A DNA stretch of 64,000 bases from Candidatus Woesebacteria bacterium GW2011_GWB1_39_10 (GTDB lineage Bacteria > Patescibacteriota > Microgenomatia > UBA8517), in the NCBI GenBank assembly GCA_000993205.1, contig LBVU01000004.1, forward strand, positions 27,338 to 91,337. Direction: 5' to 3'. The notes below the pieces were generated by a model. That model searched no databases. It saw only the letters and a list, made by a program, of their open reading frames with translations, and was not told the DNA's origin. This document shows positions 3,225-63,338 of the stretch, one piece after another (within the stretch, counting starts at the first letter, position 1; each line of letters opens with the position of its first letter). Made by a program: the position numbers and the translations under genes.

Positions 3225-3250
3225 ACTACCATAATTCGAATTATGGTAGT
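3225..3250. promoter_or_regulatory. Perfect 26-bp palindrome ACTACCATAATTCGAATTATGGTAGT ending 8 nt before the trpR-like start codon
   Basis: Read directly. An identical copy sits at 3702-3727 just after the same gene. Confidence 0.6.
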
Positions 3251-3257
3251 ATAAATT

Positions 3258-3698
3258 ATGTCGCAAGTTTCCAAACATTTTATGAGTTCCAAAATTTCCG
3301 AAAAAGTATATGGCGTTTTTATTAATTGCATTAAAAGTTCAAAATCTCAAACAGAAACAGTCGAATTTTTGAACGATCTTCTTTCTCCTCCCGAAAAGAC
3401 AATGTTGGCAAAACGCGTCGCTATAGCTTTTATGCTCCTTGAAAACAAATACACATATGAGGAAATTTCCAACACTTTAAAGATAAGTTTTGGCACAATC
3501 GCTAAAGTAAATTCGGCTTTCGCATTAAAAGGAAATGGCTATAAAAAGATTATCGGAAATTTTGTATTGAAAAAATCGATACGAAACTCTTTGTCTGAAT
3601 TTTTAGATTTGATAAAACCATCAACAAGAACATTGATGGGAGAAGTATTTCTTAAGCCTAAAATCAAATCAAAATTAAAACGCGAGGAACCACTATAA
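3258..3698 (+). CDS. TrpR/YerC-YecD-like small HTH DNA-binding protein
   Basis: 146 aa. LLSPPEKTMLAKRVAIAFMLLENKYTYEEISNTLKISFGTIAKVNSAF matches the Trp-repressor-like YerC/YecD pattern (helix-turn-helix). Confidence 0.55.
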   Translation: MSQVSKHFMSSKISEKVYGVFINCIKSSKSQTETVEFLNDLLSPPEKTMLAKRVAIAFMLLENKYTYEEISNTLKISFGTIAKVNSAFALKGNGYKKIIGNFVLKKSIRNSLSEFLDLIKPSTRTLMGEVFLKPKIKSKLKREEPL

Positions 3699-3701
3699 AC
3701 C

Positions 3702-3727
3702 ACTACCATAATTCGAATTATGGTAGT
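3702..3727. promoter_or_regulatory. Second identical copy of the 26-bp palindrome, 4 nt after the trpR-like stop
   Basis: Exact repeat of 3225-3250. Could act as operator and/or RNA hairpin. Confidence 0.6.
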
Positions 3728-3760
3728 AAATAGAACGCAGGGAGTATAATATACATAGTT

Positions 3761-4318
3761 ATGATCACTGAAAATATCATCGAGAGAGTCACAAAATTTC
3801 AGGAAGTATTGAAGGCCTTTCCGGAATTTAAATATTTAGGTGATCCTATTTTGAGAACTCCTACACAGCCCGTAGAATTGGAGGAAGGTTTTATAATTGG
3901 TAAAAAGTTAGGTGAAATTCTTATAAATTATAGAAAATTAACCGGTATTGGCAGAGGCCTCGCGGCCCCTCAAATTGGGATTGCAAGATCTGTTTTCACC
4001 ACCTATTTAGATGATAAAATTCAAATATATATAAATCCAAAAATAGTAAGCTCATCAAACAAATCCAATCTTTACCGGGAGTTATGTTTAAGTTCAGGTA
4101 TTATGTGGGCAGACGTTGAGAGACCTGTTTCTATCAAAATAGAGTGGATAAACGAATTAGGAGTAAAAGAAGATAAAGTTTTTGATAGTTTTATGGCTAG
4201 ACTTTTACAACATGAGGAGGCTCATTTGCGTGGTATTTGTAATTTAGATCAGGCTGTTGCGGGAACTATTGAAATACAACTAAGCGATCCACTTCAAGAA
4301 AAAATAAGAGAGAAATAA
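3761..4318 (+). CDS. def: Peptide deformylase
   Basis: 185 aa. Motifs GIGLAAPQIG, ELCLSS (EGCLS-like) and QHEEAHLRG (HExxH) are present. Confidence 0.8.
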   Translation: MITENIIERVTKFQEVLKAFPEFKYLGDPILRTPTQPVELEEGFIIGKKLGEILINYRKLTGIGRGLAAPQIGIARSVFTTYLDDKIQIYINPKIVSSSNKSNLYRELCLSSGIMWADVERPVSIKIEWINELGVKEDKVFDSFMARLLQHEEAHLRGICNLDQAVAGTIEIQLSDPLQEKIREK

Positions 4319-9928: not shown

Positions 9929-10027
9929 AAGCGGGTGGAAGGATTCGAACCTTCGACCTTCTAACCATCTATGCCGTTCGGCACAGATTAAACAAGTTAA
10001 CTGCTCCACCAGTTTGAGCTACACCCG
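9929..10027 (-). tRNA. Atypical 99-nt tRNA-like gene. Perfect acceptor, D and T arms, but a ~25-nt insertion forms an 8-bp hairpin in the anticodon/variable region
   Basis: GCGGGTG...CACCCGC acceptor, GCTC/GAGC D-stem, GAAGG-TTCGAAT-CCTTC T-arm. The internal TCTGTGCC-GAAC-GGCATAGA hairpin leaves no canonical anticodon arm. Confidence 0.45.
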
Positions 10028-10144
10028 CACAAAAAAATTAAAGAACTAAAAGGAAACCCTCCGCAGGATATTGTTTCTCAGGGTTTCCTTGACCAGCCGG
10101 TTGTGTCGAATGACAAAACCGTTCCCATAGATATCCCTATGGTA

Positions 10145-11161: not shown

Positions 11162-11202
11162 AATTAAATGTAACTTCCCTCAAGACTCGTGTCAACCCTC
11201 TA

Positions 11203-11259
11203 CCCAAGGACAGTCCTTGCATACGCACAAAAATCATTACTCAAGGACTGTCCTTGGGT
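11203..11259. promoter_or_regulatory. Two copies of a near-palindromic CAAGGAC-N-GTCCTTG site forming an 18-bp perfect inverted repeat, just upstream of a TTGACA-17-TACATT sodA promoter candidate
   Basis: ACCCAAGGACAGTCCTTG ... CAAGGACTGTCCTTGGGT read directly. Minus-strand TTGACA lies at 11191-11196. Confidence 0.5.
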
Positions 11260-11261
11260 AA

Positions 11262-17471: not shown

Positions 17472-18869
17472 TTAGAATGCAACTTTTGGAACATAATCAA
17501 TAGCTTTGTGGTAAAGTTTGCCTAATTCAAAAAGTGCCGGCTCCGAAAATCTCGAACCCATCAGCTGAAACCCAAGAGGTAAACCTTGTTTTGAAAACCC
17601 GCTTGGAAGGGCAAGAGAAGGAATTCCGCAAAGATTCGCCGTGGCAGCGTAAACATCGGTTAAATACATTGTAAGAGGATCCGAAACTTTATCTCCCAAC
17701 TTAAACGGCGGGGTTGGGGCAACCGGGGCGATAAGAGCGTCCACTTCATCAAATACTTTGTCTACCTCACTAATTATTTTAGATCTGACCTTCATGGCTT
17801 TAAGATAATAAGCATCGTAATATCCTGCGGATAAAACATAAGTTCCAAGCATTATTCTTCTTTTTGCCTCATCCCCAAAAGAATCGCGCCCATTTCCGTA
17901 GCGTATTCCGTCAAATCTTCCCAAGTTAGATGAAACTTCAGCCGGCTGAATAACATAATAGACGTCAATTGCATATTTAGTGGAAGGAAGAGCCACTTCT
18001 TTAAATTCAATTCCTTCTTTTTTCAAAACTTCTATCCCTAGGGTTATTGTTTTTTCAACCTCCGGATCAATCCCCTCAGTAAAAAACTCTTTCGGAATCC
18101 CCACTCTTAATTTCGAATTTCGAATTTCGAATTTCGAATTTACGACAGTGCCGTCATATCCATCTTCTCCTTTTATAACATTAAAAACAGTCTCTACATC
18201 CTCAACAGTTCTCCCTATGGGCCCAACAGTATCCAGTGAAGACGCCATCGCAATTACCCCATACCGGGACACTGCGCCATAAGTGGGTTTGATCGCAACG
18301 CTAAAACAATAATTCGCAGGCAATCTAATAGAGCCGCAGGTATCGGTTCCTGTTGTAATCAAACTCATATTCGCCGCAAGCGCGGCACCGGAACCACTTG
18401 AAGATCCTCCGGGCACATATTCCTTATTCCAAGGGTTTTTTGTAGGACCAAAATCGCTATTTTCACCTGATGAGCCATGCGCCCAGGCATCGCAGTTCAA
18501 TTTACCTATCGGGATTGCCCCGGCATTTTCTATCCGGGATACGCTGGTTGCAGAGTAAGGCGGAATGTAACTTTCCAAAACTTTTGACCCTGCAGTGGTT
18601 CTAATTCCTTTTGTTAAAAAAATATCTTTATATCCAACCACAACCCCTGCCAATGGATTTTCTTTGAAAAACTCTTCAGTATATTGATCTAGATCATTAA
18701 ACTTTTTAGCCTTGGAATATGCGATTTCATCAGAAGTTGTTAAAAAGATATTATATTCTTCATTATATTTTTTAATTCGTTCGAGATACGCGTCCACAAG
18801 TTGCACAGCAGAAAATTCCTTTTTGATAAGTCCATCTTGCGTTTCTTTAATTGTTAGTGGAATTTTCAT
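17472..18869 (-). CDS. gatA: Glutamyl-tRNA(Gln) amidotransferase subunit A (amidase signature)
   Basis: 465 aa. GGSSSGSGAALAA amidase signature and the GKLNCDAWAHGSSGENSDFGPTKNPWN block. In-frame (AATTTCG)x4 insert at 18109-18141. Confidence 0.88.
   Translation of the reverse strand: MKIPLTIKETQDGLIKKEFSAVQLVDAYLERIKKYNEEYNIFLTTSDEIAYSKAKKFNDLDQYTEEFFKENPLAGVVVGYKDIFLTKGIRTTAGSKVLESYIPPYSATSVSRIENAGAIPIGKLNCDAWAHGSSGENSDFGPTKNPWNKEYVPGGSSSGSGAALAANMSLITTGTDTCGSIRLPANYCFSVAIKPTYGAVSRYGVIAMASSLDTVGPIGRTVEDVETVFNVIKGEDGYDGTVVNSKFEIRNSKLRVGIPKEFFTEGIDPEVEKTITLGIEVLKKEGIEFKEVALPSTKYAIDVYYVIQPAEVSSNLGRFDGIRYGNGRDSFGDEAKRRIMLGTYVLSAGYYDAYYLKAMKVRSKIISEVDKVFDEVDALIAPVAPTPPFKLGDKVSDPLTMYLTDVYAATANLCGIPSLALPSGFSKQGLPLGFQLMGSRFSEPALFELGKLYHKAIDYVPKVAF
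18109..18141. repeat. (AATTTCG)x4.5 tandem inside gatA (encodes NSKFEIRNSKL)
   Basis: taatttcgaatttcgaatttcgaatttcgaattt read directly. Confidence 0.8.
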
Positions 18870-23401: not shown

Positions 23402-23427
23402 GATACCATGATTCGAAACATGGTATC
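23402..23427. promoter_or_regulatory. 26-bp near-palindrome GATACCATGATTCGAAACATGGTATC upstream of the truncated trpR-like paralog
   Basis: One mismatch from perfect. Same TTCGAA-core architecture as 3225-3250. Confidence 0.55.
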
Positions 23428-23441
23428 ATTGTGTAATAAAA

Positions 23442-23839
23442 ATGTCACAGGTTTCTAAACACTTCATGAATCCAAAAATCGCAGATCTAAAAATGAGGTA
23501 ATTTCCTTTTTAGATGATTTGCTTTCCCCCGCAGAAAAAACTATGTTAGCTAAAAGAGTAGCTATCGCCTATCTACTACTTGAAAACAAATATACTTATA
23601 GGGAAATCTCCAAAACTTTAAAAATTAGTTTGGGAACCATTGCAAAAGTTCATGCAACATTTGCTTTAAAAGGAGAAGGTTACAGAAACATAATTGGAAA
23701 CTTGGTTACAAACAAAAATATTAAGAATTTATTATCCGAATTTTTAGATTTAGTTACACCGACCAAACGTACCCTGACCGGTGAAAAATACCTAAAACTC
23801 AAATATGAATCCAAAAACAAGCGTGAAGAGCCTCTTTAA
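23442..23839 (+). pseudogene. TrpR/YerC-like paralog with a disrupted N-terminus (19-codon MSQVSKHFM... remnant, then a frameshift). The HTH core 23519-23839 is intact and may be expressed from an internal start
   Basis: MSQVSKHFMNPKIADLKMR-stop at 23442-23501 matches the N-terminus of the 3258 gene. The shifted frame then continues LLSPAEKTMLAKRVAIAYLLLENKYTYREISKTLKISLGTIAKV. Confidence 0.45.
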
Positions 23840-23843
23840 GCTT

Positions 23844-23869
23844 GTTACTATGATTCGAAACATAGTAAC
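23844..23869. promoter_or_regulatory. 26-bp near-palindrome GTTACTATGATTCGAAACATAGTAAC immediately after the trpR-like paralog
   Basis: Read directly, one mismatch. Fourth member of the palindrome family. Confidence 0.55.
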
Positions 23870-23911
23870 AAAATTCCGTATAGCGAGTTTGATATAATCT
23901 GTAGTGCGAAT

Positions 23912-23985
23912 GCGGGTGTAGTTCACCGGTAGAATGCGTCCTTCCCAAGGATGAGAAGGCGGTCCGATTCCGCTCACCCGCTCCA
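23912..23985 (+). tRNA. tRNA-Gly(CCC), CCA encoded
   Basis: Acceptor GCGGGTG/CACCCGC perfect, anticodon loop TTCCCAA, T-loop TCCGATT (C at position 55), discriminator U then CCA. Confidence 0.78.
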
Positions 23986-30491: not shown

Positions 30492-31220
30492 ATGGCTATT
30501 ATGGCTAGAAATTATTCCAGGCTGGCATCGGTTGAAGAAAGAAGGAATCTAAGAAGAGCAATCACATACATTGTTCTTGCAATTTCAGGTCTTGTACTTC
30601 TCTTCTTTTTGGGAATACCGGTAATCGGAAGATTCACCGCTTTTGTTTCTGATCTTGGAAAAAGTAATAAGCCGATTACAAACACTGACAAGACTCCACC
30701 CGCACCACCAAGATTCAATACTTTCCCGGATTTTACAAACCAAAACCAAATAAGTCTTGCTGGCACCACCGAGTCGGGGACCACGATTAAATTGACATTT
30801 AACAGAAACGTAATAGATACTCTTGCCGACAAAGACGGTACCTTTACGTTTAGCAACCTGACCTTAAATGATGGCTACAATATTTTTTTTGCCACCTCTA
30901 CCGACGCTGCCGGGAATAATAGCCAACAAACACAAGAATATAAAATAGTTTTTGATAACAAACCCCCCGACCTGACAATAGAAAGCCCCGGTGACGGCTC
31001 AACTTTTTTTGGATCAAAGCAGAGGCAAATTACAATTCAGGGAATATCTGAAAGCGGAGTTCAAATAACAATTAACGATAGAGTCGTTGTTGTCGATGAT
31101 AATGGTAAATTTCAATATACATTAACTCTCAACGAAGGAGAAAATAAATTTACAATTAAAGCGACCGACCAGGCAGGAAACTCCATCGAAAAAGACCTCA
31201 TGTTAAGTTTTTCTCCTTAA
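30492..31220 (+). CDS. Membrane-anchored protein with Ig-like (Big-type) beta domains
   Basis: 242 aa. N-terminal TM, then repeated T/S-rich beta-strand segments (TIKLTFNR..., KFTIKATDQAGN). Confidence 0.45.
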   Translation: MAIMARNYSRLASVEERRNLRRAITYIVLAISGLVLLFFLGIPVIGRFTAFVSDLGKSNKPITNTDKTPPAPPRFNTFPDFTNQNQISLAGTTESGTTIKLTFNRNVIDTLADKDGTFTFSNLTLNDGYNIFFATSTDAAGNNSQQTQEYKIVFDNKPPDLTIESPGDGSTFFGSKQRQITIQGISESGVQITINDRVVVVDDNGKFQYTLTLNEGENKFTIKATDQAGNSIEKDLMLSFSP

Positions 31221-32373
31221 CACAAAGGGCAAGCAAAAATACCATCCACCCCATTATCCAGGGATAAAAAAGTGAATTTGAAAACAGACTATGAACTGCG
31301 AGAGCTAAGAACGAAGAACTAAGAACTAAAAAGTTGGGAGTATGTTTTACAGATAAGCCGATTCCTGATATTGAATAAATAAAAACTATTAAGCCAACAA
31401 CCCCAGTAGTTGTCAAAACAAACAAGAGACTTGAATCAGATCCTGAACAAGAGTGAGAAGTAAACGTCTGAGATCCAATATATTTTTGGTAAGCAACGCA
31501 CATATTGTTGTATCCAATCCCAAATATTGGAGACTTTGAAAATATTGCCAATGTAGATTGATAGTTTTCAACTTTTGCAATAGCTGAAAAACTTCTAAAA
31601 AGTTGAATGCTATGATTCTTTGTTGTGGGTAAAACAAAGACTAATACGACAAACAAAATCGATGGGATAATAATTTTCTTTAATATTTGTTTACCCCAAA
31701 TAAACAGAGTAAGACCCACAAAAAGCGCCAAATAGCTTGCCCTGGAATAAGTAAAGGCCAGAGAGACTAAAAGAAACATTAAAAATAGAATATTTTTGAA
31801 GTTCCAACTACTAATACATCGATGTATTAGTAGTAACAAGCCAAAAACAATAATCAGACCCAAAAATGTTGGATCAAGAAAAGTACCAACTAAACGAAAT
31901 AAATGCATATCCCAACCCCATTCAAAAAAAGGTTTAATGTCGGGGAATCTAAAAAACTGAATCCAACCAAATATTACAGATACGACAGAAACGGTTAGAA
32001 GAGAATCAACCAGCAATTTTTTATTCTTTGATCTACCCGCTGAAAAATTCAAAACATATATGAGAAAGTAAGAATAGGCAACCAAACGGAGAAGATATAA
32101 AAGTCCATAAAGTACCTCTATTTGTTTAAATATAAATAACCCAAAAATCCAGGAGAACGTCGCTACAACCAACAATCCTTGAATATACTTAAAAAAATCC
32201 GGTTTTTTGAACCTTTTAATAATTGCATGGACTGCCCCCAGTCCAACGATCACGTCCATCGGATGCAATATCCCAATTCTAATTATTTGTCCAAAAGGAA
32301 ATATTACAAAGAAAAGAAAGATGAATATATTATTAAAATTTAGGCGTTTTGTATTATCCATTGTTTGCTCCAT
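31198..32373 (-). CDS. O-antigen ligase / Wzy-like polymerase family membrane protein
   Basis: 391 aa, about 10 TM segments, a YSRASYLA motif region resembling the Wzy_C ligase domain. Confidence 0.5.
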   Translation of the reverse strand: MEQTMDNTKRLNFNNIFIFLFFVIFPFGQIIRIGILHPMDVIVGLGAVHAIIKRFKKPDFFKYIQGLLVVATFSWIFGLFIFKQIEVLYGLLYLLRLVAYSYFLIYVLNFSAGRSKNKKLLVDSLLTVSVVSVIFGWIQFFRFPDIKPFFEWGWDMHLFRLVGTFLDPTFLGLIIVFGLLLLIHRCISSWNFKNILFLMFLLVSLAFTYSRASYLALFVGLTLFIWGKQILKKIIIPSILFVVLVFVLPTTKNHSIQLFRSFSAIAKVENYQSTLAIFSKSPIFGIGYNNMCVAYQKYIGSQTFTSHSCSGSDSSLLFVLTTTGVVGLIVFIYSISGIGLSVKHTPNFLVLSSSFLALAVHSLFSNSLFYPWIMGWMVFLLALCVKEKNLT

Positions 32374-38435: not shown

Positions 38436-39379
38436 TATCTATTAATTATACCTGATACAAACCCTCCCATGACACCTAGGTCAGAAACTATTTGAAGAAT
38501 GGGTCCCCAGACAGCCACTCGGTAGTCTCGAAATTCAAGATATATTTTCCGAAACGCGTAAATTAAATAAAGAAAAAAGAAAAAAAGCAAATAGGCGAGT
38601 AGGTAGGGGAACTCAAAACTAAGAACTAATAACGAAAAACCTGCAAGGTAACGAAAGAGAACAAAAAGAGCTTTAATATTGTGCGACGCAAAGCCTTTTC
38701 CGGGAAATATCCAAATTTTTGATTTTGCGTCCCCTTTTGCATATTCATAAATCTTAGATCTGAAATCCTTGATCGACCCGGGCATCCCCCACTCTACGAT
38801 TGCATTTTTCATGCGTGAAATCTTAGCTCCATTTTTAATTAATTTATAGTTAAAAACTGTATCCTCCGCCGTTCTCTCCGCCCCCTCAGGAAACCCACCA
38901 ACCTTTTCCCAAATTTTCTTTGTGAAAGCAATTGAGCGTGTTGAAGGCAAAAAACTGACATCAAAATCTTTCGGCCTTGTCCCTAAAAATACGGACATTG
39001 CCTTTTTGACAGGGTGCGACCCTGTCATGCGGTAAAACCCCGCAACAACATCGACTCCTGCATTATCAAAAGGGGAAATTATGTTTTTTATCCAATAGGG
39101 AGAAGCTACGCAACCGGCATCGGTCATAAGAATAATTTCACTTTTTGCAATTTCCACACCCAGGTTGCGGCCTCTGGCCCTTGAACATTTTTCGACAAGA
39201 AGTTTAATACGACCTTCTCTTTTTTGATAATGTCTGATTATTTCAACTGTTTTATCTTCAGAGCCGCCATCAACAATGATAATCTGATCAGGTTTTTTTG
39301 GCTGCGCCAACAGAGAATCCAAAAGTCGCCCTATTGAATCTTCTTCATTTAGCGTTGTTATACAAATCGAGATATTCAT
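38435..39379 (-). CDS. GT2-family glycosyltransferase with C-terminal TM anchor
   Basis: SICITTLNEED...IIVDGGSEDKT...MTDAGC motifs (DxD-like). Confidence 0.75.
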   Translation of the reverse strand: MNISICITTLNEEDSIGRLLDSLLAQPKKPDQIIIVDGGSEDKTVEIIRHYQKREGRIKLLVEKCSRARGRNLGVEIAKSEIILMTDAGCVASPYWIKNIISPFDNAGVDVVAGFYRMTGSHPVKKAMSVFLGTRPKDFDVSFLPSTRSIAFTKKIWEKVGGFPEGAERTAEDTVFNYKLIKNGAKISRMKNAIVEWGMPGSIKDFRSKIYEYAKGDAKSKIWIFPGKGFASHNIKALFVLFRYLAGFSLLVLSFEFPYLLAYLLFFFFLYLIYAFRKIYLEFRDYRVAVWGPILQIVSDLGVMGGFVSGIINR

Positions 39380-40280
39380 TTGCCAGTTTGTCCCAAGTTT
39401 GGGATTTTACCCACTGCTTAACATTCTTGTCGCTAAAAGGCGACATTTTCCAATAGTCTTCTTTAACCTTATTATTCCAAAACAATTTTAACTTACATCT
39501 ATATGATATTGCTTCCAGAACCGCCAAATACCCTCCGGGAACACAATATTTTGCTTTTTTAAAAAACGGAGCCGGATCGGTAAACCCATGCACCTTTCCA
39601 TATTTCCCGCATTCTTTTCTAAGTTGACCATCACCGCAAAAGTCAACTTCATATTTAACCGCTTTGTTAGCCGCTGGTTTATTGGCCAACCATTCTAAAA
39701 ACTTACAAAGTCCGGTATTTTCCTCCAGTCTCCCCACATAAACGATACTATTTGCTTCTTTTGCTACACTGCTATGTATCACTGTAGCAGCACCATAAAT
39801 TATTTTATTAAATTTAACTTTTAAGTATTTTTCTAGAAATTTACCGACCCCAATTGTTCCTGCTGAAAGTTTAACGACAAGTCTTTTTTGCCAAATACTA
39901 AATTTTGATAATGGATTATCCCACTCCAGTCCGTGAATAGTCGTAAATACGGCTTTTTTAGGATACAAAAATCTAAACGGCAAATACCAAATAAAAATAT
40001 CGTGTATATGAACGACGTCTGCCTCCTGGATTAATTTTCGGTTTTTAAATATTTCCCGCCAGATAAACAATAGTCCCAAAAATTTTATGTGTGGATAAGA
40101 AAATCTTACAACTTCTATCCCATTTGTTATTTCTTTATCCTTTAATCCAGAGTTGTATTTCTCTGTAAGTATGGTCACGCTATTCCTTTTTCGCTTTAAG
40201 CTCTTAGCTACTTCGTAGACATGTTTTTCTACCCCTCCGATATGGGGATGGTAAAGACGAGTGATAAAAAGGATGTTCAT
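39345..40280 (-). CDS. GT4 (group 1) glycosyltransferase
   Basis: MNILFITRLYHPHIGGVEKHV N-terminus typical of the GT-B GT4 family. Confidence 0.65.
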   Translation of the reverse strand: MNILFITRLYHPHIGGVEKHVYEVAKSLKRKRNSVTILTEKYNSGLKDKEITNGIEVVRFSYPHIKFLGLLFIWREIFKNRKLIQEADVVHIHDIFIWYLPFRFLYPKKAVFTTIHGLEWDNPLSKFSIWQKRLVVKLSAGTIGVGKFLEKYLKVKFNKIIYGAATVIHSSVAKEANSIVYVGRLEENTGLCKFLEWLANKPAANKAVKYEVDFCGDGQLRKECGKYGKVHGFTDPAPFFKKAKYCVPGGYLAVLEAISYRCKLKLFWNNKVKEDYWKMSPFSDKNVKQWVKSQTWDKLANEYLDLYNNAK

Positions 40281-56285: not shown

Positions 56286-57440
56286 TTAGTGGATTTTACG
56301 AAGAAAAGCAGGGATTTCGAATTTCTCACCAAAAACATCATCATCACCCGAATCATCAGAATTTTCCGGCGGTTCGGTATCCCTATTATTTTGATCGTCT
56401 TTTCTGTTTATAACAGGCTCACTTACAACGCCCTGTACGATTGGTTTTTGAACAGGTTTGCTCATTTGGGCTAAACGCGAACGGGTTTCGTCAAAACCTG
56501 TGGCAATTACAGTAATTCTGACTTGATCGTTTAGTCCTTCTTTAATTACTGCTCCAAAAATAACGTTAGCGTCAGGGTCGGCCGAGCTCGATATAATCCT
56601 CGCCGCTTCATCAACCTCAAACATTGTCAAATCATTTCCACCGGCGATATTAAAGAGAACCCCCCGCGCTCCCTCGATAGATAAATCAAGTAATGGCGAA
56701 GAAACAGCCGCACGTGCCGCCATTTGTGCCCTGTTTTCGCCGGCTCCGGTTCCAATACCGAGAAGGGCGCTTCCTGCGTCTTTCATAATTGTCTTGACGT
56801 CCGCAAAGTCTACGTTCACCAGTCCCGCAGTAGTAATAATATCCGCTATACCTCCAACTGCTTGGCCCAAAACCGAATCAACCACTTTAAACGCCTCAAG
56901 GAGGGTCATTTTTCGGTCGATGACATCCATTAAGCGTTGGTTTGGAATAACTATTAGTGTGTCTGTTGACTCCTTAAGTTTTTCAATTCCGTCCTCGGCT
57001 GCAACAGCGCGTCTCGTACCCTCAAACGCAAATGGCTTGGTAACAACTCCTACGGTTAGGGCACCGCTTTCTTTGGCCAGTCTTGCGATAACAGGCGCTG
57101 CCCCAGTACCGGTTCCACCGCCCATTCCCGCCGTTACAAAAACCATATCGCTATCAATTAAAAGTTCTTTTATTTTTTCTACCGACTCTTCCGCTGCTTG
57201 CGCGCCGATTTCCGGATTTCCTCCGACTCCAAGACCTTTTGTAAGTTTTTCTCCAATCTGAAGTTTTGTCGGAGCTTTATTTTGAAGAAGCACTTGCGCA
57301 TCGGTATTTAATGCAATAAATTCAACTCCGCTAATTGTACCCGCATCAATCATTGAAGAAACCGCGTTTCCTCCACCACCACCGACTCCAATTACTTTTA
57401 TTTTAGCGATTCTAGCTGAATCAGGTTTAACAAGTGCCAT
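56286..57440 (-). CDS. ftsZ: Cell division GTPase FtsZ
   Basis: 384 aa. [13 protein letters not shown] tubulin signature. C-terminal EIPAFLRK conserved peptide. Confidence 0.92.
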
Positions 57441-57447
57441 AGTATAC

Positions 57448-57500
57448 GGCCATGATTCTACATGGCCGAATTACAAATTACAAATATCAAATTTCAAAAT
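57448..57500. promoter_or_regulatory. ftsZ upstream region: palindrome GGCCATGATTCTACATGGCC (related to the trpR-flanking palindromes) followed by an (AATTACA/AATATCA/AATTTCA) heptamer array
   Basis: Read directly between the ftsA stop and the ftsZ start. Confidence 0.45.
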
Positions 57501-61496: not shown

Positions 61497-62238
61497 CAAG
61501 GTGACACCTTGAATGCTATTATAAATTATGCCCAGTCGTAACATTATAAAAGTTTATGTTGAAAACGGTTATTACCATATTTACAACCGTGGCGTTGAGA
61601 AACGAACCATATTCGAAGACGAACAAGACTACAGAACTTTTTTAAAGTATTTGAAAGAAAGCCTCTCTTCACCCTCCAATCTTAAAACAAAAACCAAAAC
61701 TTTCAGCGTTCGGGGTGTCACCTTTGACGCTACACCAAGGCAAGTTAAAAACTTCGACAAAAAAATTGATTTAATGGTTTATTGCCTTATGCCCAACCAT
61801 TTTCATTTACTTATAAAGCAGAAGGGACACAAAGATATCGGTGAATTTATGCAATCTTTGTCCACCAGATACTCCATGTATTTTAACAAGAAATATAAGC
61901 GGATAGGCAAACTCTTCCAAGGATCTTATAAGGCTATACTTATAACAACTGACGATTACCTTTTACACCTTTCTCGTTATGTACATTTAAACCCGACAGA
62001 ATTCACAAAAGATATTGAGAACGCTTATTCTTCATACGCCGAATATGTAGGCAAAAGAAAAACAAGTTGGGTTAAAACCAAAGAAATTTGGTCTTATTTC
62101 AATAAGGCGAGTATTGATTTTAAAAAACGCGGTAACACGTATCGTGACTTCGTTGAAAAATATCAAACAGACATCGAGTCAACCTTGGGCAAATTAACGC
62201 TTGAAGAATAGATGCATTCAAGGTGTCACCTTGAATGC
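61497..62238 (+). mobile_element. REP-associated tyrosine transposase (RAYT/IS200-like) unit: tnpA flanked by REP-type hairpins CAAGGTG-A-CACCTTG (5') and GCATTCAAGGTG-T-CACCTTGAATGC (3')
   Basis: Hairpins read directly at 61497-61516 and 62214-62238, bracketing the transposase ORF. Confidence 0.75.
61528..62211 (+). CDS. tnpA: IS200/IS605-family Y1 transposase (RAYT-type)
   Basis: 227 aa. HUH motif PNHFHLL and catalytic Tyr region LSRYVHLNP. Confidence 0.8.
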   Translation: MPSRNIIKVYVENGYYHIYNRGVEKRTIFEDEQDYRTFLKYLKESLSSPSNLKTKTKTFSVRGVTFDATPRQVKNFDKKIDLMVYCLMPNHFHLLIKQKGHKDIGEFMQSLSTRYSMYFNKKYKRIGKLFQGSYKAILITTDDYLLHLSRYVHLNPTEFTKDIENAYSSYAEYVGKRKTSWVKTKEIWSYFNKASIDFKKRGNTYRDFVEKYQTDIESTLGKLTLEE

Positions 62239-63338
62239 ATTGCATTTTCGTAAGATCCATATTTTGATATATTCAAAAGTATCCCGCACGCAGATAGTAT
62301 CATCACCAAACTTGTTCCTCCATATGACAAAAATGGCAACGGGATGCCGGTTAAAGGGGTTATGGAAACCATCGACGCTATATTCAAAAACGCCTGACCC
62401 GAAATCCAAGCCACGATGCCAATTGCAAGGACTTTTGAAAATTTGTCAGGTGCGCTCCTGGCAATTTTAACTCCTTTGACAAATAAATATATGTATAAGG
62501 AGATAATGGCAACCGATCCTATAAGACCCAGTTCCTCTGCAATAACGGCAAAAATTGAATCAGTTGAGGCTTCTGGTAAAAATAAATATTTTTGTCTTGA
62601 AGCCCCCAGTCCTACCCCAAATATTCCTCCTGACCCTAATGCCAATAGAATTTGTCTTATATGATAACCCTTTCCCAGTGGATCACTTGTTGTTTCAAAA
62701 AATGTAAGAAGTCTGTCTCTTCTGTAGGGGGAAACTAGAATAAGACCAATCGTTCCTAAGGCGCCAGTTATTAGTGCGCCAAGGAAATATAATAGATTCA
62801 CACCGGAAATAAATATCTGCGACAACCCGATTACGGCCACTACCAGTGTGGTTCCCAGATCCGGTTGCAACATTATCAAACCGGTTACTAGAACAAGAGG
62901 AATAAAATATGACGCGGCCCCTTTGTTTTTAGCAGCAATTTTTGCCAAATATATAGCAAGGCTAAGTTTAATTATCTCTGAAGGCTGGAAGTTGAAAGCC
63001 CCGATAGAAATCCATCTTCTAGCACCGAGGGCCGCAAAACTTAAATGAGGTAACAAAACAGCCAAGAGAAAAAGTATCGAAAGGAAAAAAAACGGTGTTG
63101 CGATTTTTTCCCAAAATGAGTAATGAACATTTATAGTAATAAACAGTGTAACGATTCCAACGATTGCCCACACCACCTGTTGACGAAGAAGAAAAAATTT
63201 ATCTCCGTATGCATTTAGCGCCTGAGGGGCCGAGGCATCGGCAACAAATATTAACCCCAATGCGACAAAGAAAAGTATCAACCAGAAAAGTTTTTTATCA
63301 ATATTTTTAACCTGCTTTGAAAGCACCAATTTTTTCAT
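62226..63338 (-). CDS. ftsW: SEDS-family protein FtsW (dcw-cluster copy); stop codon lies inside the 3' REP hairpin
   Basis: Start at internal MKKLVLSK (ATG 63336-63338). TFFETTSDPLGKGYHIRQ SEDS loop. The ~100 codons upstream in the ORF track are a non-coding run-on. Confidence 0.75.
   Translation of the reverse strand: MKKLVLSKQVKNIDKKLFWLILFFVALGLIFVADASAPQALNAYGDKFFLLRQQVVWAIVGIVTLFITINVHYSFWEKIATPFFFLSILFLLAVLLPHLSFAALGARRWISIGAFNFQPSEIIKLSLAIYLAKIAAKNKGAASYFIPLVLVTGLIMLQPDLGTTLVVAVIGLSQIFISGVNLLYFLGALITGALGTIGLILVSPYRRDRLLTFFETTSDPLGKGYHIRQILLALGSGGIFGVGLGASRQKYLFLPEASTDSIFAVIAEELGLIGSVAIISLYIYLFVKGVKIARSAPDKFSKVLAIGIVAWISGQAFLNIASMVSITPLTGIPLPFLSYGGTSLVMILSACGILLNISKYGSYENAMHSR

Follow-up and report, generated by a model that had tools for sequence, protein, structure and literature searches.

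A 64,000-nucleotide stretch of the genome of Candidatus Woesebacteria bacterium GW2011_GWB1_39_10, an uncultured groundwater-type member of the Microgenomates (contig LBVU01000004.1, positions 27,338 to 91,337; hereafter the window), carries a gene for a 146-residue protein of the Trp-repressor (TrpR) family that stands between two identical perfect palindromes. We think it somewhat better than an even chance (a probability of roughly 0.55) that this protein is an autoregulated repressor of the TrpR/HisR family whose gene stands between a pair of operators and whose small regulon comprises genes of tRNA modification and envelope synthesis. The evidence that carries this reading is the fold of the protein, a bracket of palindromes that is conserved among its homologues, a palindrome type that tracks the protein subfamily, sites dispersed elsewhere in the genomes, and the recurrence of the same genes beside those sites.

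A TrpR-family gene between two palindromes

The gene and its two palindromes, which we call unit 1, are laid out as follows together with the probable promoter element of the next gene.

3225 to 3250, no strand: upstream palindrome of unit 1; an exact match where none is expected by chance, and a likely operator
3258 to 3698, plus strand: TrpR-fold gene of 146 codons, type-1 paralogue (Pfam PF01371, AlphaFold2, Foldseek)
3702 to 3727, no strand: downstream palindrome of unit 1, identical to the upstream copy
3745 to 3750, plus strand: TATAAT, the probable −10 element of the downstream 185-residue gene, read from the sequence

The palindrome, ACTACCATAATTCGAATTATGGTAGT, is perfect over 26 bp and occurs exactly twice in the window; allowing up to three mismatches revealed no further match there, and none in 100 shuffled sequences. 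The open reading frame (ORF) starts 7 nt past the first copy, and its stop codon ends 3 nt ahead of the second, so that the first-pass annotation was correct in describing a TrpR-like gene bracketed by two identical 26-bp perfect palindromes. The right arm of the upstream copy and its flank (GGTAGTATAAAT) contain −10-like hexamers, with the ATG 7 nt further on. The downstream copy ends 17 nt ahead of the TATAAT hexamer, itself 5′ of a 185-residue ORF (3761 to 4318), and would thus occupy the −35 place of that gene's promoter; our promoter scan of the window did not list this hexamer and found no −35 match. Judged by eye, the 185-residue ORF is probably a peptide deformylase and the 759-residue ORF on the other side of unit 1 probably a phosphoenolpyruvate-utilising enzyme.

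By profile and predicted structure, the 146-residue protein is a member of the Trp-repressor family. It matches the Pfam Trp_repressor profile PF01371 with 53.9 bits (cutoff 27, E value 1.9e-14), the match covering residues 20 to 99 and profile positions 5 to 84 of 88. Among the NCBIfam models, the score for HisR/YerC-YecD (TIGR02531) was 34.4 bits, under the cutoff of 42.2, and the TrpR cutoff was likewise not reached. The AlphaFold2 monomer model has a mean pLDDT confidence of 75 (87 to 92 in the core) and shows seven helices over residues 11 to 119, with a helix-turn-helix at about residues 67 to 90, an additional helix on its C-terminal side and, at the end, a basic tail that is disordered. 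Foldseek placed E. coli TrpR at the top, with template-modelling (TM) scores of 0.74 to 0.81 on the target, and the top 42 Protein Data Bank hits were all TrpR or TrpR-like (TM 0.7 to 0.8). A profile built from 24 homologues retrieved the structures 3G1C, 3FRW and 3KOR at E values of about 1e-9 and E. coli TrpR at about 3e-3. YerC has been identified as HisR, the histidine repressor of the TrpR family, and 3G1C is treated as a HisR; TrpR and HisR bind palindromic operators of 20 bp, and roughly one hisR gene in two has a site of its own in front of it and is autoregulated (PMC9413887).

The family comprises 1,355 clusters at 50% identity (E values up to 1e-10), nearly all of about 147 residues, and appears to be confined to Microgenomates/Patescibacteria, the groups to which all named hits belong. 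Across 164 members the N-terminus M-[SPAT]-Q-[VI]-S-[KR] is strongly conserved (Q in 84%, S in 94%) and the tail usually ends in P-F or P-L. Both termini are in fact unusually conserved (P0001 to P0203), the basic disordered tail ending in a hydrophobic residue in 85% of cases, with a proline before it in 46%. Several homologues that end in E-x-P-F/L had suggested an SSB-like acidic C-terminal tip, an idea we dropped since the tail is basic across the 164 members. Searches of PADLOC and PHROGs with the family gave no match and the palindrome was absent from 2.9 million viral contigs, and on these grounds a phage or defence origin is ruled out.

The bracket is not peculiar to the window. At the 17 genome loci found via the protein, almost every homologue has a long palindrome shortly 5′ of its start codon and another 3′ of its stop codon, and the same arrangement is seen in about 30 metagenome loci. 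In about 20 of 29 distinct units, 5 to 13 nt separate the end of the upstream palindrome from the ATG, with A(T/A)AAAT following the palindrome; the downstream copy lies 2 to 44 nt past the stop codon in 22 of the 25 distinct units with both flanks readable. Where the unit sits among glycosyltransferase genes, the next ATG follows the downstream palindrome by 4 to 23 nt, the same layout as at the regulator's own start.

Palindrome type varies with the protein. Most of the 17 loci have a TTCGAA centre; a Collierbacteria genome (L005) has ACTTCAATTATTTAAATAATTGAAGT, L004 has CTGTATTGATGATACGTATCATCAATACAG, L012 and L015 have a TTAATTAA centre, and the ATCGAT-centred AATACTTCGATGTATCGATACATCGAAGTATT is found in L014, L016 and L017. 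Each type is paired with its own recognition helix: GT[IV]AK[IV] with TTCGAA, STSTATYF with ATCGAT, SLATVYTV with TTTAAA, SMSTIGWV with TACGTA and SSRTIAKF with TTAATTAA. Paralogues within a single genome also carry different palindromes, as in CandRoiz1 (L014 versus L015) and in the window itself. Between subfamilies the two flanking palindromes change together, and because they do so over deep divergence, both copies have evidently been kept by selection and are no relic of a recent duplication. The bracket is thus a trait conserved in the family and no local accident.

The two copies are not always alike in sequence. A T at half-site position 8 is found in 19 of 50 arms of downstream copies and 6 of 50 arms of upstream copies, a difference that suggests a graded operator pair. 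There are also hybrid sites, among them TACGAT...ATGGTA of L047, L050 and L076 as well as the upstream site of L002, and these fit the recognition of half-sites.

The whole unit has at least five different settings. It lies antisense to rpsG and fusA, between the two, in each of two different glycosyltransferase clusters, between the 759-residue and 185-residue ORFs (unit 1 of the window) and between a LysM gene and a tRNA-Gly gene (the second unit of the window, described below). Gene order around it differs between relatives; within the glycosyltransferase context an alpha/beta-hydrolase gene lies either 5′ or 3′ of the unit, and in L013 this hydrolase gene is itself palindrome-bounded. In one lineage (L001, L002, L003, L046, L070 and L074) the antisense unit separates rpsG (S7) from fusA (EF-G), which normally lie in one str operon, and in L087 a single palindrome 62 nt past rpsG takes the place of the unit. 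In one lineage a 36-bp perfect palindrome rich in G+C, AAGGCCTCCCCCTGCAGTACTGCAGGGGGAGGCCTT, recurs some 1.2 kb upstream of the unit (L053, 2641 to 2676; L057, 1648 to 1683; L086, 2924 to 2959).

The second unit of the window, unit 2, consists of the following.

23402 to 23427, no strand: upstream palindrome of unit 2, the type-2 variant GATACCATGATTCGAAACATGGTATC with one central A-A mismatch; the same variant is present in L092 and L094
23442 to 23839, plus strand: type-2 paralogue, disrupted (alignment with the full-length orthologues of L092 and L094; ORF list)
23844 to 23869, no strand: downstream palindrome of unit 2, GTTACTATGATTCGAAACATAGTAAC

Compared with the full-length orthologues in L092 and L094, the unit-2 gene has lost 43 nt after codon 16, causing a frameshift, and the remaining ORF (23519 to 23839) is identical to database protein P0029. 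The first-pass annotation had recognised this second palindrome-gene-palindrome unit and named duplication of the unit as one possibility: the unit is real, although its gene is disrupted, but it does not result from a recent duplication, and the two units of the window are old paralogues with different palindrome variants. The downstream palindrome of unit 2 ends 23 nt ahead of TGATATAAT (23890 to 23898), which lies 5′ of tRNA-Gly(CCC) at 23912 to 23985. A spacing of 23 to 25 nt between palindrome and tRNA-Gly −10 element is kept in four genomes (the window, L092, L094 and L020). The order LysM gene, palindrome, type-2 gene, palindrome, tRNA-Gly is common to the window, L092 and L094, and L093 is alike up to its contig end. 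The relative L020 has the LysM gene, a single palindrome and tRNA-Gly, the type-2 gene being absent at the locus; the single palindrome is of type-1 sequence and is no chimera of the flanking type-2 pair.

Under the repressor reading, the 146-residue protein would most likely bind the 26-bp palindrome as duplex DNA and as a symmetric dimer. The upstream copy would overlap the promoter and the start of the protein's own, probably leaderless, gene, and occupancy there would shut the gene off in negative feedback, perhaps in response to an effector. Because the upstream palindrome of most units ends only 5 to 13 nt before the ATG, there is no room for a leader with a ribosome-binding site; we infer either a leaderless mRNA whose −10 element is supplied by the outer right arm (TAGTAT or TACTAT) or a palindrome within a very short leader. 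The copy past the stop codon would act as a second operator, probably cooperating with the first by looping out the gene of about 480 bp, and, where a gene follows, it would also sit on the promoter of that gene, namely that of the 185-residue protein in unit 1 and that of tRNA-Gly in unit 2. Roughly ten further sites per genome would make up a small regulon, with Tgt, MiaA, a MiaB-like enzyme, TruB, PheS, YchF and tRNA-Gly on the translation side and GT4 glycosyltransferases, a Mur ligase, FemAB and UppP on the envelope side.

Dispersed sites and their neighbours

A scan of metagenome contigs with the exact pattern TACSATRATTCGAAWYATSGTA yielded 74 loci, of which only 29 have a TrpR-like ORF beside the site; two others (L080 and L086) are cut right after a gene start reading MPQISK or MAQIS. 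After dereplication there were 91 sites, of which 53 flank the regulator gene; of the others, 20 are between genes and 18 are in-frame sites within ORFs. Contigs of 40 to 300 kb have one or two exact matches each, which implies on the order of ten sites per genome. The palindrome is therefore not present at hundreds of unrelated loci, an outcome that the first-pass annotation had considered fatal to a link with this gene family, yet about 40% of the sites are away from the gene, and about half of these are in coding sequence. If roughly 90% of the sequence is taken to be coding, the sites between genes are enriched about five-fold.

The genes that contain or adjoin the non-unit sites fall largely into two functional groups. 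Those concerned with tRNA and translation are Tgt (in three lineages), MiaA, a MiaB-like radical-SAM enzyme, TruB, PheS and YchF; those concerned with the envelope are five GT4/GT1 glycosyltransferases, a Mur ligase, FemAB, BacA/UppP and a PMT_2 membrane protein. UvrC is a further neighbour, and no his genes were found among the neighbours. Orthologous neighbours (Tgt, MiaA, TruB, Mur ligase, FemAB and GT4 glycosyltransferases) recur across lineages that carry different site variants, and the sites of GT4 genes occupy two independent positions. If a genome has about 1,000 genes and each site two neighbours, chance alone would put about 0.08 Tgt neighbours at the 38 sites, so that the three observed are unlikely to be a coincidence. 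Together, the 53 of 91 sites that flank one small gene and the recurrence of orthologous neighbours support an autoregulated repressor with a small regulon.

The in-frame sites translate as Y-[HD]-[DN]-S-N-[HY]-[GR] (13 cases) or T-[MI]-I-R-I-I-V (5 cases); the third frame has a stop codon. In YchF the resulting segment TTMIRIIVV aligns gap-free with GMIRSVGL of the Haemophilus protein, and at the MiaA site there is a single-residue gap. Elsewhere the site coincides with extra sequence: the TruB site lies in a loop 5 to 7 residues longer than in solved structures, the Mur ligase (MurE) site in a segment about 20 residues longer and the site in the GT4 glycosyltransferase of L033 in a 14-residue insertion. 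Two GT4 orthologues have the site 25 residues further along, in a variable loop, and the window's own GT4 orthologue (39348 to 40280, minus strand) has no site. Since the inserts are of variable size or of no size at all, the intragenic sites arose in place or with small variable indels. His/Asp and Gly/Arg differences between orthologues are coupled via the symmetry of the palindrome, and DNA-level selection has overridden protein sequence at the in-frame sites. A fixed-size mobile insert, of the kind represented by miniature inverted-repeat transposable elements or Rickettsia palindromic elements, was rejected: there are no target duplications, and YchF and MiaA hold the site without an insertion.

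Some of the dispersed loci have additional features. In L050 (6778 to 6829) two variants, GTATCGATGATTCGAATCATCGATAC and ACTACCATGATTCGAATTATGGTAGT, stand back to back in intergenic DNA with no spacer, and the miaA gene of that contig contains a third variant. In L051 (2358 to 2389), L072 (5620 to 5651) and L079 (3054 to 3085) a 32-bp perfect palindrome, AGTGATATAATGATTTAAATCATTATATCACT, is found at the end of truB, the same gene also holding an in-frame TTCGAA-type site; AGTGATATAATGATTTAAATCATTATATCACT may represent a second palindrome class at this one target gene.

Symmetry of the sites and alternative readings

The half-site profile reads RNTACSATRATTC. The site is sharply bounded at 26 bp, with complementarity between the arms of 87 to 100% up to position 13, 59% at position 14 and background values from position 15 on. 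The flanks, TT before and AA after on both strands, only extend the palindrome.

Several observations sit poorly with an operator bound by a TrpR-like dimer. At 26 bp the site is longer than the 18 to 20 bp covered by one TrpR or HisR dimer, and its symmetry goes far beyond what protein contacts alone require. Positions 12 and 13, which lay outside the search pattern, carry little information and yet are complementary in 96% and 95% of sites, compared with 36% and 51% in shuffles. In the 26 units with both copies available, differences between copies affect both arms 17 times and one arm 12 times, where at most 1.9 double changes are expected if arms change independently; once the hypervariable position 8 is allowed for, there are still nine double changes where about 1.6 would be expected. 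The two sites are spaced by 476 to 534 bp without helical phasing, and about half of the 38 non-unit sites (18) are in the middle of genes, which is unusual for operators. The association of subfamily with palindrome could in part reflect common descent of a linked unit without recognition. The near-perfect symmetry and the intragenic sites are left unexplained by the repressor reading, as is the L020 locus, where the gene is missing and one palindrome is left.

One explanation for the symmetry is that the palindromes act as RNA or single-stranded DNA hairpins or as cruciforms, that is, as signals for transcript ends or processing, protein-dependent terminators or replication structures, with symmetry kept for pairing. 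The sites do fold, at −12 to −14 kcal/mol with z about −5, although as RNA they are only moderately stable; their variable positions stay complementary, two-arm changes are in excess, the loop and upper stem are most conserved, as in protein-recognised hairpins, and many sites lie 0 to 20 nt past a stop codon. However, the mismatches on the sense strand (8 G-U, 11 A-C and 14 others) show no preference for G-U, hybrid sites with two to three mismatched pairs persist (the upstream site of L002, for example), the flanks are TT and AA and never a U tract, no Rfam family matches, and the upstream copy is probably at or before the start of the transcript. Symmetry also has other possible sources, such as site classes or correction at replication. 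We consider hairpin function very unlikely and conclude that RNA pairing is not what is selected and that something beyond dimer contacts keeps the arms alike. This might be the reading of discrete site classes (TACCAT versus TTCGAT) by different paralogues, the formation of cruciforms or the hairpin-templated correction of near-palindromes, arm to arm, during replication.

Two specific RNA identities were rejected. An intrinsic terminator is incompatible with an A+T-rich stem, the missing U tract and the presence of sites in mid-gene; the terminator scan produced a sole hit, at the downstream copy on the minus strand, and the tail there, TTTATAG, is weak. Membership of a known RNA family was discarded as Rfam 15, at its gathering scores, matched only tRNAs in the window.

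Alternatively, a recombinase could use the palindromes as dif-like crossover sites (arm, 6-bp centre, arm); the gene and one palindrome would then make up a mobile cassette, with the TrpR-like protein as its cargo or an accessory factor. The single palindrome in L020, where the window, L092 and L094 have palindrome-gene-palindrome, speaks for such exchange (neither circles nor empty sites were seen within a population), and the distribution of the unit over at least five unrelated contexts, with a hydrolase gene that shifts sides and is palindrome-bounded in L013, points the same way. The 10/11-6-10/11 geometry is dif-like, though any 26-bp palindrome would fit it, and the inner CATAA-N6-TTATG of the A variant resembles dif. 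Yet the commoner G variant (CATGATTCGAATCATG) is without the dif-like ATAA/TTAT, and Xer sites have two different arms, unlike these perfect palindromes with a palindromic centre and 87 to 100% complementarity at every position. Sites arose inside conserved housekeeping genes without insertion (gap-free in YchF, with a one-residue gap in MiaA), and recombination among the 5 to 15 sites of a chromosome, which have no orientation, would scramble its roughly 1 Mb. Nor is the L020 palindrome a chimera of two flanking type-2 sites, and no recombinase gene recurs beside the sites in the gene contexts examined, in which no scan aimed at recombinases was made. There is room for exchange at the palindromes, but their symmetry, the sites in essential genes and the lack of a recurrent recombinase argue against exchange as the main role, and we regard the cassette reading as unlikely.

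The third alternative grants that the protein binds the palindromes and assigns it a mainly architectural role, with the sites as chromosomal landmarks like those of parS/ParB, matS/MatP or Noc. Of the non-unit sites, about half lie inside genes and are no less perfect than those between genes, coding sequence has been reshaped to hold them (YHDSNHG or TMIRIIV), their density is low (one or two exact matches per contig of 40 to 300 kb), and the conserved termini and extra C-terminal helix could serve to bridge sites. Against this, the fold is that of TrpR and not of ParB or MatP, no partner NTPase recurs beside the gene, intergenic sites are about five-fold enriched and most are right at gene starts, and the recurrence of the same gene families as neighbours is the signature of a regulon. 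On balance an architectural role appears unlikely. GC skew, which might have indicated an origin or terminus landmark, is uniformly negative across the window and uninformative.

Elements of these alternatives can be combined. The palindromes might be self-maintaining, protein-bound landmarks written into Microgenomates chromosomes, reading frames included, kept symmetric via hairpin or cruciform formation and arm-to-arm copying, and doubling as exchange points at which the regulator gene, and now and then a neighbouring gene, would be gained, lost or moved. This is quite improbable in our estimation; if true, it would amount to dif modules in chromosomal form, linked to a TrpR-fold protein of their own.

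Among the three readings that the first-pass annotation had offered, then, the operator pair is the best supported, given a bracket that is conserved in divergent homologues and a palindrome type that follows the subfamily. The RNA hairpin pair fell away for want of an Rfam match, a G-U bias and a U tract; the duplicated cassette retains weak but real support in the single palindrome of L020 and the variable gene order. Gene regulation in the Candidate Phyla Radiation is almost unknown, and the regulator family described here is large and apparently confined to that group. Because the site can be read from the flanks of each gene, the family offers a ready-made protein-to-site map over many specificity classes, and both the regulon and the recognition code become testable by simple binding assays with proteins of unculturable organisms. 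The in-frame sites present a rare and clean case of sequence that is both coding and a putative binding site. Searches of the literature on Microgenomates palindromes and Patescibacteria regulons returned nothing on this system, and the palindrome sequence appeared in no paper of the literature searched.

Other features of the window and comparison with known systems

Two further palindromic features of the window need to be set beside units 1 and 2.

31807 to 31834, inside the minus-strand ORF 31198 to 32373: 28-bp perfect palindrome ACTACTAATACATCGATGTATTAGTAGT with an ATCGAT centre, in frame (LLLIHRCISS) in a 391-residue membrane protein
57448 to 57467, no strand: hairpin GGCCATGATTCTACATGGCC in the ftsA-ftsZ spacer, 8 nt before the ftsZ start at 57440 (minus strand)

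The palindrome at 31807 to 31834 has the outer ACTAC...GTAGT in common with the unit-1 palindrome, and ATCGAT-centred palindromes like it flank the homologues in L014, L016 and L017; it may be a site of another paralogue class. The hairpin upstream of ftsZ had been taken for a related palindrome. It is a real hairpin but no family member, and the proposed link to ftsZ is unsupported: it shares only CCATGATTC, has no TTCGAA centre, has its arms 2 bp closer together, is without the conserved T and A at half-site positions 11 and 10 and was not found at up to three mismatches. About 0.5 matches to a 9-mer are expected by chance in 64 kb.

Some other repeats and RNA features were seen in the window. 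At 11201 to 11260 two 15-bp palindromes, CAAGGAC(A/T)GTCCTTG, lie 26 bp apart and jointly form a 19-nt inverted repeat, which looks like a double operator of some other regulator. The heptamer AATTTCG is repeated about 4.5 times at 18107 to 18140 (TTAATTTCGAATTTCGAATTTCGAATTTCGAATTT); the unit is not a multiple of three and slippage would shift any frame there. On the minus strand at 9930 to 10028, a 99-nt Rfam tRNA match adjoins tRNA-Pro and is unlisted by ARAGORN; an intron or a long insertion in a tRNA may account for it. Directly past a stop codon at 62212 to 62240 is a hairpin with a 14-bp stem, ATGCATTCAAGGTG-T-CACCTTGAATGCAT, followed by TGCATTTTCG, which looks like an ordinary terminator unrelated to the TTCGAA family.

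Among known systems, several resemble the present one in part. In REP/RAYT systems a gene for an HUH transposase is flanked by palindromic repeats of its own family, which number hundreds of copies; here the protein is a helix-turn-helix regulator and there are about ten copies per genome, with 18 of the 38 non-unit sites intragenic, and the wrong fold and the wrong copy number led us to reject that identity. Rickettsia palindromic elements are palindromic repeats that lie in frame inside protein genes. By comparison, the sites in YchF and MiaA are no insertions, and the extra segments in TruB, the glycosyltransferase and MurE range from 5 to about 20 residues. In the parS/ParB and matS/MatP systems a small protein dedicated to the task binds a handful of near-perfect palindromes in each genome, often within genes; these systems differ from the present system in fold and in the partner ATPase, which is missing here, and the sites described here favour gene starts.

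In the lac system an auxiliary operator, O2, lies inside lacZ and cooperates by looping with another operator a few hundred bp away, and the loops of gal and deo are of the same kind. A loop in the present system would instead enclose the regulator's own gene, and the sites at its two ends are perfect palindromes that are nearly identical. In Acinetobacter plasmids, dif modules consist of short genes or groups of genes bracketed by 28-bp arm-centre-arm sites, shuffled as units, with single sites elsewhere (PMC6449649, PMC13141974). Our sites, in contrast, are chromosomal, perfectly symmetric, few and often in essential genes, and we saw no link to Xer.

The closest parallel is with HisR (YerC/YecD) and TrpR, which have the same fold and helix-turn-helix and are small dimeric repressors with palindromic operators, often before the regulator's own gene (PMC9413887). 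The protein described here has 146 residues where HisR and TrpR have about 100, and adds a conserved M-x-Q-V-S-K start, a further helix and a basic tail with P-F/L at its end. The palindrome, 26 bp long and usually perfect, has the half-site RNTACSATRATTC, whereas the HisR operator is 20 bp (cacTTTAnnnnnnTAAAgtg) and lies before his or histidine-transport genes (PMC9413887). Unlike in HisR and TrpR, a second site past the stop codon is the rule, many sites lie in frame within genes and the putative targets are not amino-acid biosynthesis genes. On these sequence comparisons the protein most likely works like TrpR or HisR, as a member of the same fold family that is no orthologue of HisR.

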